IMG/VR virus record: IMGVR_UViG_2563366839_000008
Reading direction: 5' to 3' (one strand)
Source: a virus
Lineage: Duplodnaviria; Heunggongvirae; Uroviricota; Caudoviricetes
DNA: 20,624 nt
Shown here: positions 4,926-17,892 of the stretch, one piece after another
Numbering within the stretch: the first letter of the stretch is position 1
How the letters are laid out: each line of letters begins with the position of its first letter
Notes under the pieces: model-generated
What the model was told of the DNA's origin: nothing
What the model saw: only the letters and a program-made list of their open reading frames with translations
Databases searched by the model: none
Position numbers and translations under genes: made by a program

Positions 4926-5201
4926 ATGTCGACTGAAAATGATGAAATCATTAACTCCCTGATACGCCAGATTAATAATTTTGATAAAGCATTGCAACAT
5001 GCTGCGGCGCGTAGTGATATAACTCTTTTAGCAATTTCATTTCTTGCATCTGTTATGGATAAAAATGAAGTCGTACGACAGAGTCTTGTTGATTATATCG
5101 ACTCGCTTCAACCCGGCACTTTCAATCATGAGAGCTTCAATCATGAGAAAGAGCATGTTAAGTCTGTAATTAATTCTCTTATTTTGAATCAAAAGAATTA
5201 A
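4926..5201 (+). CDS. Hypothetical protein, 91 aa, AT-rich, convergent with the repressor-side operon
   Basis: ATG at 4926 preceded by a strong SD (CAGGAGGGTGAA-ATG). Coding sequence is markedly AT-rich relative to its flanks. Its 3' end overlaps the 3' end of the minus-strand 110-aa gene. No recognisable domain. Confidence 0.45.
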   Translation: MSTENDEIINSLIRQINNFDKALQHAAARSDITLLAISFLASVMDKNEVVRQSLVDYIDSLQPGTFNHESFNHEKEHVKSVINSLILNQKN

Positions 5202-5511
5202 TGCTTTTTGTTGCAAAGTAATTTTCAAGGGGTTCTATTCGAATCCCTTTCTTTTTCATTAACAAGCCAAACCCCTTATCAATGATGTCCATTAGATCCA
5301 GGAAGTATTTTTCATGTAAATCCTGGTTATCAGAGAGCTGCTTCTCTTCGTACAGCCCGATAAAGGCTCGGCGTACGTTACCGGATATATTGTCGATGGT
5401 TTCTTTTTCTACGGTACTCAGGTCAAGAGTCGCCAGTTGAGAGCGAACCACATTCGATGCCATTTCCTGGAATGGTACTGGTAAATCTTTAAATTCCATC
5501 GTCAACCTCAT
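5179..5511 (-). CDS. Hypothetical protein (110 aa; 106 aa from second ATG) in the repressor-side operon
   Basis: First ATG overlaps the ydfA-like stop (TGATG coupling). Second ATG at 5497-5499 has SD GAGG 6 nt upstream. No recognisable motif; occupies the rex/sie-type position downstream of cI. Confidence 0.6.
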   Translation of the reverse strand: MRLTMEFKDLPVPFQEMASNVVRSQLATLDLSTVEKETIDNISGNVRRAFIGLYEEKQLSDNQDLHEKYFLDLMDIIDKGFGLLMKKKGIRIEPLENYFATKSINSFDSK

Positions 5512-8787: not shown

Positions 8788-9038
8788 GTGAATCAAAATG
8801 CCAGGTTAATGGCAACAAGATAGAACCATGTGCAGCACTGGCAAAGTCCCTTGAGCGTGATGCTGAATACACGATGCGAAAAGGTCTGCTGATATACAAA
8901 ATCTGGAATGAGAGTTTAACTCGCGGTCCTGATTTTGTGATGTTGCGTTCCGGTGAATTTTCTAAATTACCAGTTCGGGTTTCATTTTGTCCGTTCTGTG
9001 GTGAAAGTCTGAAAACGTGGGAGAACAGAAATGAATGA
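8784..9038 (+). CDS. Hypothetical small Cys-containing protein, 84 aa (possible zinc-ribbon)
   Basis: GTG start overlapping the previous stop, SD GAGGAGG upstream; C-terminal CPFCGE motif plus upstream Cys residues. Confidence 0.5.
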   Translation: MSESKCQVNGNKIEPCAALAKSLERDAEYTMRKGLLIYKIWNESLTRGPDFVMLRSGEFSKLPVRVSFCPFCGESLKTWENRNE

Positions 9039-9342
9039 AATTAAAGAAATACCAGTAGTACGTGATGAATATGGCTACTGGACGCATCCTGAATATGAAA
9101 AATTCTGTGACGGTCGGGAATATATTTCAACGGAAGAGTTTAACGCCTGGATGGAGGAAAATAATCTTCAATACGTCCTCTGCTTCAGAGATGAAGGATG
9201 TGCTGACCTTGATGCGTGTGATGCTGATATTTCTGCATGGGAACCGGAACGACCAGAGGGCAATGGATGGTTTATTGGTTCAATACATGACACCGAAGAT
9301 GGCCCGGTTTGTGTATGGCTGAGAAATAAGGCCGAAGCATAA
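9031..9342 (+). CDS. Hypothetical phage protein, 103 aa
   Basis: ATG overlaps the previous stop; protein-like composition; part of a translationally coupled early-right operon. Confidence 0.55.
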   Translation: MNEIKEIPVVRDEYGYWTHPEYEKFCDGREYISTEEFNAWMEENNLQYVLCFRDEGCADLDACDADISAWEPERPEGNGWFIGSIHDTEDGPVCVWLRNKAEA

Positions 9343-9470
9343 AGGCTATAAACCGACTAACAACTAAATACTGAAGATTTAAATCAGAAACGATTTTTAT
9401 TAAATCCTTAACCGGAGGGATTCCTGCACCCTCAGAACATCAGGAGGCCGTCCGAAAGGGCGGTAGTGAA

Positions 9471-9653
9471 ATGCGAAAATTCAAAATAATTATTGAAACG
9501 GGAATAGCCGGTGGAGATTTCGAGGATGAATTCGAAGTGGATGATGATGCAACACCAGATGAAATACAGGATGAAGCTAAAGATATTTTCTTTAACTACT
9601 GCAATTACTCATACCACGAAATAAAAGACGAAGAGGAAGAACAAAATGGCTGA
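9471..9653 (+). CDS. Highly acidic small protein, 60 aa
   Basis: Translation MRKFKIIIETGIAGGDFEDEFEVDDDATPDEIQDEAKDIFFNYCNYSYHEIKDEEEEQNG has Asp/Glu at more than a third of positions; weak SD. Confidence 0.5.
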   Translation: MRKFKIIIETGIAGGDFEDEFEVDDDATPDEIQDEAKDIFFNYCNYSYHEIKDEEEEQNG

Positions 9654-9822
9654 TTTTGGTTCAACTAAATATAACGCCAGTTTTGAAGAATGGCATGAAC
9701 TGTTAATGGATTATGCAGAGTTACGCGGTGGAAGTGCCGCTGATGCTGAAGCATGGCGTGATGATTATGAAGCAGGGAAAACACCGGTCGAAGCATATTG
9801 TGATGAGTGGGGCGATGAATGA
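9646..9822 (+). CDS. Hypothetical small protein, 58 aa (below the ORF-track length cutoff)
   Basis: Read directly from sequence: MADFGSTKYNASFEEWHELLMDYAELRGGSAADAEAWRDDYEAGKTPVEAYCDEWGDE. SD GAGGAAG 8 nt upstream; overlaps neighbours at both ends. Confidence 0.5.
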   Translation: MADFGSTKYNASFEEWHELLMDYAELRGGSAADAEAWRDDYEAGKTPVEAYCDEWGDE

Positions 9823-11478: not shown

Positions 11479-11689
11479 AAACGGTTTGCGGGAAAAGGAG
11501 AGTTAAGTAGAATTGCAGCGGGTGCTTGAGGCTATCTGTCTCAGGCATGAACACCAAAAGGCAGATAGAGAAAAGCCCCAGTTAACATTACGCGTCCGGC
11601 AAGACGCTTAACATTAATCTGAGGCCATATCTATGCTCTACACACGTAGGTTAGCCTCTTACGTGCCGAAAGGCAAGGAGAAGCAGGCT

Positions 11690-11845
11690 ATGAAGCAGCA
11701 AAAGGCGATGCTAATCGCCCTGATCGTCATCTGTTTAACCGTCATTGTGACGGCACTGGTAACGAGGAAAGACCTCTGCGAGGTACGAATCCGAACCGGC
11801 CAGACGGAGGTCGCTGTCTTCACAGCTTACGAACCTGAGGAGTAA
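11690..11845 (+). CDS. hokD: Hok/Gef-family type I toxin (HokD/RelF-like), 51 aa
   Basis: Translation MKQQKAMLIALIVICLTVIVTALVTRKDLCEVRIRTGQTEVAVFTAYEPEE matches recalled HokD; SD AAGGAG 8 nt upstream. Structured leader at 11480-11689 and a 3' hairpin at 11853-11877. Confidence 0.85.
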   Translation: MKQQKAMLIALIVICLTVIVTALVTRKDLCEVRIRTGQTEVAVFTAYEPEE

Positions 11846-12010: not shown

Positions 12011-12661
12011 ATGAATGAAAATCAGTTAGCTCCTTGTTGGGAATTTCAACCTTATCTTGCTGAAAACTATGTTCGCCACTTGTTGGCGGAGATCGCTAAC
12101 GTACTTGAGCAGCTGTACTATCATAAGCACGCATTAGACAGCAACTGGTCTGAAGGTGTAAGGGCTTATGATTGGGTCAGAAATCATCTTATTCAAAATG
12201 AAGATGCAATTCCTGGCCTTGAGATGATTTCCAAGGGGTTGGACTATGTAGTTGCTTTAAATAAAGTTCCGCTACAATTTACCAAAGATTGCATTAATAA
12301 CCCCAAAAAGAAACATCGTCTGCGTCGAAATAAAGTAGAGTATGAGCAGCTCTCATTGTTTGGTGATGTTGAGGCTGAGCAAGATATTACATGGCGAGTC
12401 ATAGCTGAGCCTTTTTTATCCGAAGAGGGCGATGGTGAATTAGAGTCCACACTGCCTCGTTGGGAGGTAGCTCTTGTTGGATTTAATACTTATGGTGCTC
12501 AGATTAGTATAGTTTCTCATCAATCTACAGCATCGATGCCGCTTATGCCTCTTGATTATAACACACTCCCTGACGAAGCGGAGATTAATAAGGTGCCTCT
12601 TCGTCGGCGTACGAAGGATAAAGATTTGGATGTGAGCAGTGATGGAACATCAGGTGAATAA
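12011..12661 (+). CDS. Unknown protein, 216 aa; upstream partner of the HTH-metallopeptidase gene (candidate effector/toxin)
   Basis: AT-rich ORF with a weak SD, overlapping the downstream gene by 20 nt. No recognisable catalytic motif. Flanked by terminators. Confidence 0.65.
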   Translation: MNENQLAPCWEFQPYLAENYVRHLLAEIANVLEQLYYHKHALDSNWSEGVRAYDWVRNHLIQNEDAIPGLEMISKGLDYVVALNKVPLQFTKDCINNPKKKHRLRRNKVEYEQLSLFGDVEAEQDITWRVIAEPFLSEEGDGELESTLPRWEVALVGFNTYGAQISIVSHQSTASMPLMPLDYNTLPDEAEINKVPLRRRTKDKDLDVSSDGTSGE

Positions 12662-13745
12662 CTTCACTGAGTATCGGGGTGATAAGCTCAAACTAGCGAG
12701 AATGGCTGTTGGGCTTTCTTGTGAAGAGTTAGCCGAAAAAATTGGCAAGACAAAGCAATTCGTTAGCAAACTGGAGAAGGGGTGCAGGCCATCGGAGCAA
12801 TGTCTTGAGTTAATATCTTCAGCGCTTATGATTAAGTCCAGTTTTCTTTTTACTGAACGAAAATACGCTCTGGAAAGTGATGTCTGCCATTTTCGGAGTA
12901 AGAAGTCCAGGACTCAAACGCTGACTAATAGTGTATTGGCCAGGGCTGAGATTCTTAATATTATAATTTCTGCTGTTGAAGGTGAAATCGAATTTCCTGA
13001 CGTTAACATACCGGAGCACCCAGGGGCTGAATTACTTACTCCGAATGATATTGAGCGAGTGGCAGAAGATTGTCGCCGTGCCTGGAATTTAGGTCTTGGC
13101 CCTATATCATCAATGGTTAAATTGGCGGAGAGTTTAGGGGTAATCGTTGCGCATGTTACGGGAGTCGATGATCGTGTTGATGCTTTTACTGTTCACAATA
13201 ACAGGCCTGTTATCATCAGGAACAATGTTAAAAAAAGCATATGTAGATTTCGCTCTGATTTAGGTCATGAATTAGGGCATTTAGTAATGCATGAGGGCAT
13301 AACGACAGGTGATAAACTTACGGAATCACAAGCCGATCACTTTTCGAGCGCCTTATTAGTTCCCAGGTTATCTTTCATTAAAGAATTTCCACGAATACGA
13401 GGTAAGCAATTCGACTGGAATGCTCTGGTTGAATTTAAACTTAGATGGAAAATCAGCCTTAAAATGTGTATTTATCGAGCCAGCGCATTAGGCTTATTGA
13501 CCCAGGAACAGGCAAGAACTGGCTATATGCATCTTAATTCCAGAGGGTATACGAGAGTTGAACCTGGTGATGAACTTTTGCGCCCTGAAGAACCCGGCAT
13601 GCTGGCCGAGGCGATTGAAATGCTGGATGATGCAACCTGGCTAAGAATTCTTATGAAAACTGGCTTGAGCCAAGATTTAATTCGTGAGTTGTTCTCCATC
13701 AACAGACCTATTACAAATCCAAGAAATATTTTCCAGATTGTTTGA
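12642..13745 (+). CDS. XRE-family HTH fused to ImmA/IrrE-family zinc metallopeptidase (COG2856-like, HEXXH motif), 368 aa
   Basis: N-terminal HTH LKLARMAVGLSCEELAEKIGKTKQFVSKLEKG; central zinc-peptidase motif DLGHELGHLVMHE. ATG at 12642 (GTG at 12639) is coupled to the upstream gene. AT-rich. Confidence 0.8.
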   Translation: MEHQVNNFTEYRGDKLKLARMAVGLSCEELAEKIGKTKQFVSKLEKGCRPSEQCLELISSALMIKSSFLFTERKYALESDVCHFRSKKSRTQTLTNSVLARAEILNIIISAVEGEIEFPDVNIPEHPGAELLTPNDIERVAEDCRRAWNLGLGPISSMVKLAESLGVIVAHVTGVDDRVDAFTVHNNRPVIIRNNVKKSICRFRSDLGHELGHLVMHEGITTGDKLTESQADHFSSALLVPRLSFIKEFPRIRGKQFDWNALVEFKLRWKISLKMCIYRASALGLLTQEQARTGYMHLNSRGYTRVEPGDELLRPEEPGMLAEAIEMLDDATWLRILMKTGLSQDLIRELFSINRPITNPRNIFQIV

Positions 13746-16830: not shown

Positions 16831-17892
16831 ATGAAAAATACTGTAAAAATAAACAGTGTTGATTTAATCAACGCTGATTGCCTGCATTTTATTCAGTCCC
16901 TGCCTGATGATTCCATTGACCTGATTGTTACCGATCCGCCGTACTTCAAGGTGAAACCCAACGGCTGGGACAATCAGTGGAAAGGGGACGAAGATTACCT
17001 TAAGTGGCTGGACCACTGTCTGGCCCAGTTCTGGCGGGTGTTAAAACCTGCCGGAAGCCTTTACCTGTTCTGTGGGCATCGCCTGGCATCTGATATTGAG
17101 ATCATGATGCGTGAACGTTTCAACGTGCTTAACCATATCATCTGGGCGAAGCCGTCCGGACGTTGGAATGGGTGTAATAAAGAAAGTCTGCGCGCATATT
17201 TTCCTGCCACAGAGCGCGTTCTGTTTGCTGAACATTACCAGGGGCCATATCGCGGCAAAAGTGACGGCTATGTAGCAAAAGAAAGGGAACTCAAACAGCA
17301 CATAATGGCACCGCTGATATCGTATTTCAGGGATGCTCGTGCCGAACTGGGTATAACGGCAAAACAAATTGCCGAAGCCACAGGTAAGAAAAATATGGTT
17401 TCCCACTGGTTTGGTGCCAGTCAGTGGCAGTTGCCGAATGAGGCTGACTACCGGAAGTTACAGGCACTGTTTTCCCGTATAGCGGCAGAGAAGTTTCAGG
17501 AACAACAACTGGAACAACCACACCACCAGTTGGTGGCATCTTATGATTCACTGAATCGCAAATATTCTGAATTGCTGGATGAGTTTAAATCTCTCCGGCG
17601 CTATTTCTCCGTATCAGTCTCCGTGCCTTATACCGATGTCTGGATGCATAAACCCGTTCAGTTCTACCCGGGTAAACATCCGTGTGAGAAACCGGCGGAT
17701 ATGCTCAGGCAAATAATCAATGCCAGTAGTCGACCCGGCGATCTGGTTGCTGATTTCTTTATGGGATCCGGTTCCACAATAAAAGCAGCAATGGCGCTGG
17801 GGCGTCGGGCGTTAGGTGTTGAGCTTGAGACAGAGCGGTTTAATCAGACCATCCAGGAAATCAGTATGTTATCAGCAAATACAATTTTGTGA
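16831..17892 (+). CDS. Orphan phage DNA methyltransferase (amino-MTase, beta-class: DPPY motif IV N-terminal, FxGxG motif I C-terminal)
   Basis: Motif IV LIVTDPPY near the N-terminus and motif I DFFMGSGST near the C-terminus; internal HTH-like segment GITAKQIAEATGKK. No adjacent restriction endonuclease gene. Weak SD. Confidence 0.85.
   Translation: MKNTVKINSVDLINADCLHFIQSLPDDSIDLIVTDPPYFKVKPNGWDNQWKGDEDYLKWLDHCLAQFWRVLKPAGSLYLFCGHRLASDIEIMMRERFNVLNHIIWAKPSGRWNGCNKESLRAYFPATERVLFAEHYQGPYRGKSDGYVAKERELKQHIMAPLISYFRDARAELGITAKQIAEATGKKNMVSHWFGASQWQLPNEADYRKLQALFSRIAAEKFQEQQLEQPHHQLVASYDSLNRKYSELLDEFKSLRRYFSVSVSVPYTDVWMHKPVQFYPGKHPCEKPADMLRQIINASSRPGDLVADFFMGSGSTIKAAMALGRRALGVELETERFNQTIQEISMLSANTIL

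Follow-up and report, generated by a model that had tools for sequence, protein, structure and literature searches.

The window, by which we mean the whole stretch of 20,624 nucleotides that was analyzed, is a lambdoid (Qin/Rac-like) prophage of Escherichia coli integrated beside ompW, and several complete genomes match it with 100% identity. The leftward genes encode an integrase, an excisionase, a large exonuclease, YdfD, DicB and a LexA-type repressor. The rightward genes start with a cro-like gene, followed by a YdaT-like gene, an O-like replication gene, a DUF977/Ren-like gene and about ten small open reading frames (ORFs), among them the acidic gene that is the subject of this analysis; further downstream are hokD, a two-gene defence system, DUF968, the Q-like antiterminator ydfT, a DNA methyltransferase and the lysis genes. 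The acidic gene belongs to the rightward early operon, where it is preceded by the replication genes and followed by the gene for the Q-like antiterminator, and no promoter-like or convincing terminator-like site was found between it and the genes 5' of it. Because it lies about 2.7 kb downstream of the cro-like gene, delayed-early expression is to be expected. Thus, the location in the early-right operon reported in the first-pass annotation holds, whereas the early timing drawn from that location has to be read as delayed-early rather than immediate.

The ORF encodes a protein of 60 amino acids (MRKFKIIIETGIAGGDFEDEFEVDDDATPDEIQDEAKDIFFNYCNYSYHEIKDEEEEQNG), with an ATG start codon, which is the first start codon 3' of an in-frame stop, and a TGA stop codon. 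Its coordinates are exactly those given in the first-pass annotation, and the two acidic runs singled out there map to residues 16-26 (DFEDEFEVDDD) and 53-58 (DEEEEQ). Aspartate and glutamate account for 20 of the 60 residues, that is, for exactly one third of the protein and not for more than a third as was first stated. With only five lysines and arginines, the net charge is -15 and the pI is 4.05. Among all six-frame ORFs of at least 50 amino acids in the window (n=72), the mean fraction of acidic residues is 0.093 (sd 0.062), and the acidic ORF has the maximum value; the acidity of this product is well above chance. The G+C content of the gene is lower than that of the window (36% vs 47%), in part because of its GAA and GAT codons. 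Comparison of the gene with its relatives in other prophages (dS 0.3-1.8) yielded the low dN/dS values given in Table 1, and the identical protein in RefSeq is named 'DUF7167 family protein'. This is a real gene under purifying selection.

Table 1. Features of the DUF7167 gene and its immediate surroundings, in window coordinates
Feature	Position	Strand	Evidence or remark
AGGAGG Shine-Dalgarno-like hexamer	9442..9447	+	Read from the sequence; 23 nt 5' of the ATG
7-bp hairpin with GAAA tetraloop (GCCGUCC-GAAA-GGGCGGU)	9447..9464	+	Between the Shine-Dalgarno-like hexamer and the start codon
DUF7167 family 60-aa protein, coding sequence including stop	9471..9653	+	Pfam and PHROG match; dN/dS 0.02-0.13; same protein as WP_001224665.1 (RefSeq)
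Predicted beta-hairpin, strands at residues 2-8 and 17-23, with T-G-x-x-G-G loop	9474..9539	+	AlphaFold2 model 2, pLDDT 90-93
Acidic core motif E-V-D-D-D-A-T-P-D-E-I and predicted helix, residues 29-43	9534..9599	+	Column conservation; helix in model 2
Aromatic segment C-N-Y-S-Y-H-E-I, residues 44-51	9600..9623	+	Positions 44, 46 and 48 hydrophobic or aromatic in 95-99% of sequences
Predicted disordered acidic C-terminal tail KDEEEEQNG	9624..9650	+	Mean pLDDT 65 for residues 51-60
Co-transferred 58-aa ORF, PHROG 519 (function not assigned), net charge -12	9646..9822	+	ORF list; PHROG match

A mobile two-gene cassette and its upstream element

The DUF7167 gene travels together with the 58-aa ORF that follows it. 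The segment spanning positions 9440-9822, which includes both genes, recurs at about 94% identity in phage ArgO145 and other Stx2a-converting phages, and the gene pair is shared by these phages and some 1,750 E. coli genomes. In the Stx2a phages, the copies are located in the leftward early operon, among the Ead/Ea22-like genes of the exo-xis region. The recurrence of the pair in the rightward operon of the window and in the leftward operon of the Stx2a phages indicates that this is a small cassette shuffling between the two early operons of lambdoid phages. The cassette was detected in 1,931 of the 5,426 complete E. coli genomes (36%), at up to four sites per genome, and is carried by only a subset of otherwise similar lambdoid prophages. 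No homolog of the 58-aa ORF was found beside distant members of the DUF7167 family.

Within the cassette, the genes are packed tightly. The ATG of the 58-aa ORF overlaps the stop codon of the DUF7167 gene (ATGGCTGA), and the stop codon of the 58-aa ORF overlaps, in turn, the following ATG (ATGA); these overlaps on the downstream side of the DUF7167 gene represent a tightly packed operon arrangement. Both ORFs that flank the gene are themselves strongly acidic, with a net charge of -17 for the upstream one (9031..9342, 103 aa) and -12 for the downstream one. Because such acidity is common in this gene array, acidity alone is weak evidence for the mimic reading considered below.

The Shine-Dalgarno-like hexamer is the first conserved element of the cassette: the similarity to the Stx2a phages starts at position 9440, just 5' of it. 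The hairpin that separates the hexamer from the start codon has a predicted folding energy of -14.2 kcal/mol in its 39-nt context (z -3.5), and the homologous loci yielded -16.9 and -15.5 kcal/mol. The hairpin is kept in the cassette, with a U-to-C change that converts a G.U pair to a G-C pair. No Rfam family matched in the intergenic region 5' of the acidic gene. If the hairpin is looped out, the effective spacing between the Shine-Dalgarno-like hexamer and the ATG would be 6 nt; the element may have a role in translation.

The DUF7167 family, its conserved acidity and predicted fold

The acidic protein is a full-length member of DUF7167, and both the protein and the family have already been catalogued. 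It matches Pfam DUF7167 (PF23768) with 54.5 bits, compared to a cut-off of 24.4 (E 1.2e-14), with residues 2-53 aligned to profile positions 1-60 of 60, and PHROG 1997 (function not assigned) with an E-value of 2.7e-30 and coverage 1-57 of 57. Apart from DUF7167, the Pfam scan at E-values up to 0.1 returned only one unrelated, sub-threshold match. The window protein carries every conserved column of a 91-sequence family alignment, including all parts of the core motif, namely, the hydrophobic strand beta1, a G-rich loop, the signature F-E-V-[DE]-D-D-A-T-x-[DE]-E-I, F-N, and aromatic-x-aromatic.

A word-indexed search retrieved only close relatives from E. coli, all of which contain PF23768. 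The exhaustive profile search of 1.84 billion representatives, at E-values up to 1e-3, produced 223 clusters at 50% identity, so that the family comprises at least this number of clusters, nearly all of which are standalone proteins of 50-65 aa. The phages that encode members include temperate as well as virulent ones, and their hosts belong to the Proteobacteria, Firmicutes and Actinobacteria. Annotated carriers include temperate Klebsiella phages, Guernseyvirinae, E. coli Phapecoctavirus (phAPEC8-like, ~150 kb), a 151-kb Pseudomonas phage and Enterococcus Brockvirinae (EF24C-like, ~140 kb); the members from Lactococcus phage 949 and Streptomyces phage Paedore were found through structure search. 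A degenerate DNA pattern for E-V-E-D-D-A-T-x-E-E-I had matches in 31 contigs from viruses and 2 from bacterial MAGs, and each of these contigs encodes a family member. Departures from the standalone architecture include a few tandem two-domain proteins (P0086 and P0095) and a fusion to a YopX domain (P0113), and some loci (L026 and L038) encode two or three tandem DUF7167 paralogs. In the literature searched, which included a review that modelled exo-xis proteins, we found no mention of the family or its accessions.

The acidity of DUF7167 is a family trait that is selected at fixed positions and is not incidental. Averaged over 106 divergent standalone representatives, aspartate and glutamate account for 27.3% of the residues (sd 3.6), and the net charge is -10.6. 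In the 91-sequence alignment, numbered here as in the window protein, about 13 columns are acidic in 60-95% of the sequences. The most conserved of these are E22 (95%) and D25 (91%), followed by position 38 (87%), positions 29-31 (70-88%), D26 (78%, plus 15% N), positions 33-34 (73-74%), D24 (73%), E50 (63%) and E9 (60%); the acidic fraction is 44-66% at E18-E20 and 40-62% at positions 52-58 of the tail. The column of T28, located within the same stretch, contains threonine in 90% of the sequences.

Two AlphaFold2 models were built, one from 8 sequences (pLDDT 75.8), with a beta-beta-alpha-beta layout, and the other one from 91 sequences (overall pLDDT 88.3). The alternating hydrophobic pattern of the predicted beta-hairpin is conserved across the family. 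In the predicted helix that follows, the entire exposed face would be acidic. Residues A27, T28, E31 and I32 resemble the combination of a capping box and a hydrophobic staple by which helices commonly begin. Given that T28, E31 and the acidic residues of the first turn can be explained by helix capping and stabilization of the helix dipole, not all conserved carboxylates need to be functional; some are probably structural, but most are not accounted for in this manner. The aromatic segment at residues 44-51 forms a strand (residues 46-51) in the first model and is an extended, unpaired coil in the second one. Being paired in one model and unpaired in the other, it is a candidate dimerization strand. 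The tail differs in length across the family. Judging from the positions of the acidic residues, these would cover the exposed face of the helix, the loop between beta2 and the helix, one face of the sheet and the tail, rather than forming a single strip. A homodimer is hinted at by the combination of the aromatic strand left unpaired in the second model, the relatives with tandem domains or tandem paralogs, and Foldseek matches, not significant ones, to domain-swapped dimers. An EF-hand-like calcium site spanning D24-E35 was considered and rejected: positions 6 and 8 of the segment do not fit the canonical EF-hand loop, and only 27% of the family members have an acidic residue at position 12.

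Genomic neighborhoods and the candidate functions

Clustering of the four genes on each side of the DUF7167 gene in about 40 loci showed that the neighbors are retained only among closely related phages, and neither this clustering nor the Pfam annotation of 139 flanking ORFs from 24 non-redundant loci revealed a recurring partner or an enriched function. The Pfam families most common among the 139 ORFs are DUF551 (four occurrences) and Ead/Ea22 (three), with nucleases, methylases and others found once or twice; methylases, nucleases and known anti-defence genes are not enriched. With no neighbor family that recurs between lineages, DUF7167 behaves as a standalone gene. Two loci are pertinent to the readings considered below. 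In Klebsiella phage VLCpiS11a, the DUF7167 gene is followed by a gene for a PD-(D/E)XK exonuclease, the start of which it overlaps, and then by genes for a Gp2.5-like annealing protein and a polymerase; this adjacency to an exonuclease is limited to one lineage. In one metagenomic locus, the gene lies near those encoding NrdD/NrdG and a metallophosphatase.

The reading of the ORF as spurious or decaying, and devoid of function, could be prompted by the frameshifted or truncated alleles that circulate among E. coli genomes (P0059, 46 aa, in 107 contigs, as well as P0048, P0050, P0057 and P0068). Against this stand the strong purifying selection, the confident AlphaFold model, the conserved core shared by the 223 family representatives across phyla, the conserved ribosome-binding-site region, and the stop codon that overlaps the start of the next gene, so that, for the intact allele in the window, this reading is effectively refuted. 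An accessory role in the phage's own replication or recombination, for example, as an acidic escort or regulator of a basic phage protein such as an annealing protein, an SSB or a nuclease, is quite unlikely: no replication or recombination family is enriched among the 139 flanking ORFs of the 24 loci, the cassette moves between both early operons independently of those modules, and its presence in only a subset of similar lambdoid prophages is typical of dispensable accessory genes. What favors such a role is the frequent location of the gene within or next to modules for replication or recombination, together with the position of the window gene after the O-like and Ren-like genes, the placement of the Stx2a copies in the exo-xis region, the VLCpiS11a arrangement directly 5' of the exonuclease and annealing protein genes, the metagenomic locus with NrdD/NrdG and the metallophosphatase, and the single YopX-fused member.

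The charge density comparable to that of Ocr, the acidic C-terminal tail and the early operon are all compatible with an anti-restriction protein of the Ocr/ArdA type that blocks type I restriction-modification enzymes, but the protein is related to Ocr and ArdA neither in sequence nor in fold; the gene lies some 2.7 kb into the operon, which makes it delayed-early, and other genes enter and are expressed before it; there is no linkage to methyltransferases or other anti-restriction genes; and the family is common in phages whose hosts differ greatly in their restriction repertoires. Furthermore, with about 50 folded residues, the stretch of DNA that the protein could mimic, even as a dimer, would be far shorter than the one mimicked by dimeric Ocr. 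We consider this function very unlikely. A specific inhibitor or modulator of another protein, acting without any mimicry of nucleic acids and engaging a single conserved protein of the host or the phage through a defined interface made up of the conserved residues, is a possible, if somewhat unlikely, alternative. Small alpha/beta 'plug' proteins provide models for such an activity: Gp2 of T7 binds the beta' jaw of RNA polymerase, and Dmd of T4 neutralizes the toxins RnlA and LsoA. Against mimicry, E22 and D25 hardly vary, as one would sooner expect of residues that make a specific contact or are required by the fold than of residues engaged in loose electrostatic mimicry. The acidic surface conserved in phages of three phyla, the lack of a fixed partner gene and the Ocr-like charge density put mimicry in the lead, and we consider competitive, DNA-mimic-like inhibition of a conserved protein that binds nucleic acids to be the single most likely mechanism, with a probability of about 0.4.

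Under this mimic reading, DUF7167 would be a delayed-early accessory protein that consists of an alpha/beta mini-domain of about 50 residues (a beta-hairpin, a helix and an aromatic C-terminal strand) and a short disordered acidic tail. The protein would act alone, probably as a homodimer, and serve as a polyanionic decoy: the conserved carboxylates in the loop that joins beta2 to the helix, on the exposed helix face and in the tail would dock onto the basic, nucleic-acid-binding surface of a broadly conserved target and block the access of that target to DNA or RNA. A target that is broadly conserved, or a ligand as generic as DNA-binding surfaces, would fit the wide host range of the family. 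We infer that the protein dimerizes and that it binds a partner with affinity for nucleic acids, and any effect on host defences is likewise putative. The idea of a DNA mimic or anti-defence factor put forward in the first-pass annotation survives insofar as it describes a polyanionic early protein, given the conserved, position-specific acidity, the Ocr-like charge and the early operon; its likening to Ocr and ArdA is kept as an analogy only, because no positive finding connects the protein with any defence system or with the alleviation of restriction.

A bolder proposal, which we regard as doubtful, is that DUF7167 represents an unrecognized, cross-phylum family of minimal DNA mimics (about 50 residues, dimeric) with which temperate and virulent phages alike inactivate a host enzyme that binds DNA and is universally conserved. 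The target could then be the end-processing nuclease RecBCD/AddAB or a nucleoid protein, for example HU, or the protein could act on several defence systems that sense DNA. About one in three E. coli genomes contains the cassette, which Stx2a-converting phages carry as well, and, if this proposal is true, DUF7167 would be among the most common anti-host factors of E. coli. Members are also found in virulent phages that infect Enterococcus, Klebsiella, Pseudomonas, Lactococcus and Streptomyces, and several of these phages are in therapeutic use or under consideration for it. As a broad-spectrum polyanionic inhibitor, DUF7167 would extend the short list of DNA mimics by a scaffold that is both very small and very widespread, and it would bear on phage host range, on prophage induction in STEC, and on mimic-sensing defence systems such as PARIS, which senses Ocr according to the EVADES preprint. 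Should the mimic reading be right, this is a new family within a known kind; should it be wrong, this is one more abundant phage protein without an assigned function. At 60 aa, the protein is easily synthesized, so that the hypothesis is cheap to test.

Comparison with known mimics and small phage inhibitors

Profiles built from 8 and 91 family sequences, when compared with all PDB chains, produced only low-complexity or chance matches (ribosomal protein L23, E 0.03, and designed repeat proteins); no Ocr, ArdA, Gam, Gp5.9, p56, Ugi or anti-CRISPR mimic was among the matches of the family profile. The Foldseek search of the PDB likewise returned nothing significant (best E 1.2). Homology to Ocr, in sequence or fold, was not detected in these profile and fold searches, and no ArdA chain was found among their matches. 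For the acidic protein and its immediate neighbors, there were no PADLOC matches at E-values up to 0.1 and no NCBIfam matches. The text and supplements of the EVADES catalogue, with 268 anti-defence proteins of which 11 are listed as DNA mimics, contain neither DUF7167, nor PF23768, nor WP_001224665.

Among the small phage inhibitors, Gp2 of T7, which inhibits the host RNA polymerase, differs from DUF7167 in its much lower charge density (-0.08 per residue) and in the functional arginines of its beta3 strand, which contact the beta' jaw and lack a counterpart in DUF7167; the hhalign probability is 0.3%, and the scores against both Gp2 and the antitoxin Dmd of T4 are within the range expected for generic folds.

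The phi29 protein p56 (gene 0.8), a dimeric DNA mimic of 56 aa that inhibits UDG, is similar in size, acidic, alpha/beta and early. It shares with DUF7167 a local motif of 14 residues (DFEVLYGNTADEII vs EFEVDDDATPDEIQ, 50% identity), and the pattern FEVxxxxTxDEI was confirmed in its sequence. However, p56 carries only -0.12 net charge per residue, and its motif is C-terminal, with no strand after the helix, so that the topology differs from that of DUF7167. Homology between the two was rejected: the hhalign probability is 0.3%, the match is confined to the 14 residues in a different topology, and p56 is absent from the PDB profile and fold matches. The shared motif most likely represents a junction of a common type, leading from a strand into a capped helix.

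Gp5.9 of T7, a small DNA mimic that inhibits RecBCD, is close to DUF7167 in length (52 vs 60 aa), and both proteins are acidic. In T7, the exonuclease gene 6 begins within gene 5.9, much as the exonuclease gene of VLCpiS11a begins within the DUF7167 gene; this positional analogy favors the mimic reading. Gp5.9 is, however, less acidic (-0.15 per residue), and adjacency to an exonuclease is not general in DUF7167. Homology was rejected here as well, with an hhalign probability of 0.1% and a single aligned column.

Of the mimics whose charge density was compared, Ocr of T7 (gene 0.3) is the one that DUF7167 matches. Ocr is an all-helical, elongated dimer that mimics about 24 bp of bent DNA. It consists of 117 aa, in contrast to the predicted alpha/beta domain of about 50 residues in DUF7167, and is the product of the first gene expressed upon T7 entry, whereas the DUF7167 gene in the window is delayed-early. 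Both proteins have an acidic C-terminal tail, are encoded by early genes and have a pI of 4.05, and the net charge per residue is -0.24 in Ocr and -0.25 in the window protein, so that the charge density that is a class feature of DNA mimics is found here at the level of Ocr.

Cassette position and a related record

The two-gene cassette, consisting of the DUF7167 gene (9471..9653) and the downstream 58-aa ORF, lies in the rightward early (post-replication) region of the window, and in Stx2a-converting phages it is found in the leftward early exo-xis region, flanked by Ead/Ea22-like genes. Its presence in both positions exemplifies how accessory genes are shuffled between the two early operons.

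A further relative, PP818812.1, shares 94% identity with the E. coli prophage of the window across 1 kb. The record, 'Actinobacillus phage vB_Apl-pPE4', is labelled as a phage of Actinobacillus pleuropneumoniae, and its gene content includes Kil, DicA, YdaT, Hok and Ead/Ea22, typical E. coli Rac/Qin-type genes. Either the assigned host seems questionable, or this is a lambdoid phage of the E. coli type.

Features of the window and of related loci
Feature	Location	Strand	Basis or remark
AGGAGG-to-start region	window 9442..9473	+	sequence
Two-gene cassette	window 9440..9822; phage ArgO145 (L002) 5001..5401		sequence similarity
Three successive small ORFs, including the DUF7167 gene	window 9031..9822	+	all strongly acidic
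hokD-type type I toxin	window 11633..11845; ~11690-11845	+	RefSeq annotation
RmrT match, 216-aa ORF	window 12011..12661	+	PADLOC model, E 4.6e-25
RmrA match, 368-aa ORF	window 12639..13745	+	PADLOC model, E 6e-105
DNA methyltransferase, between Q-like antiterminator and lysis genes	window 16831..17892	+	RefSeq annotation
Three tandem DUF7167 paralogs	L026 3477..4327	-	human-gut viral contig
Two tandem DUF7167 paralogs	L038 4537..5196	-	human-gut viral contig

Damaged, tandem and extended family members

Five alleles from E. coli genomes (P0048, P0050, P0057, P0059 and P0068) are frameshifted or truncated and close with out-of-frame tails, such as ...KIFSLTTAITHTTK or ...RKRQRSTVLTLIYW, the former corresponding to the +1 frame of window positions 9511..9624. 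One of these alleles, P0059, is carried on 107 contigs; thus, the gene is decaying in some prophages.

Other members of the family are enlarged. Two proteins, P0086 and P0095, are two-domain DUF7167 fusions, with a linker of just ~3 residues in P0095, and, together with the tandem paralogs in the human-gut contigs, these fusions are consistent with a dimeric functional unit. The metagenomic member P0156 (223 aa) contains an N-terminal zinc-ribbon-like extension (CxxC...CxxC) and ends with an extremely acidic tail of ~100 residues in proline-rich repeats (DEDPVEDDPEEP...), in which the acidic tail of the window protein recurs in exaggerated form.

Acidic neighbours and defence cargo

In order, the three successive acidic ORFs carry a net charge of -17, -15 and -12. 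The first is a member of PHROG 1372 and the third of PHROG 519, and Pfam and NCBIfam searches yielded no match for either. Downstream, in the nin-like region, the overlapping RmrT- and RmrA-matching ORFs, named in RefSeq just 'hypothetical protein' and 'helix-turn-helix domain-containing protein', constitute, by these profile matches, a Rosmer anti-phage defence system. Along with this system, the hokD-type toxin and the DNA methyltransferase give the prophage abundant cargo for defence and addiction.

Translation start region of the DUF7167 gene

The ATG of the gene is preceded, 23 nt upstream, by a strong AGGAGG, the exact point where the similarity of the window to Stx phages begins. Between the two lies a stable 7-bp GAAA-tetraloop hairpin (9447-9464), and looping it out leaves a spacing of 6 nt. 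This layout is retained in the E. coli cassette, with one G.U to G-C change. Distant DUF7167 members have ordinary Shine-Dalgarno spacing. Hairpin-bridged Shine-Dalgarno sites have been described for T4 genes 38 and 25, and the arrangement found here resembles them.
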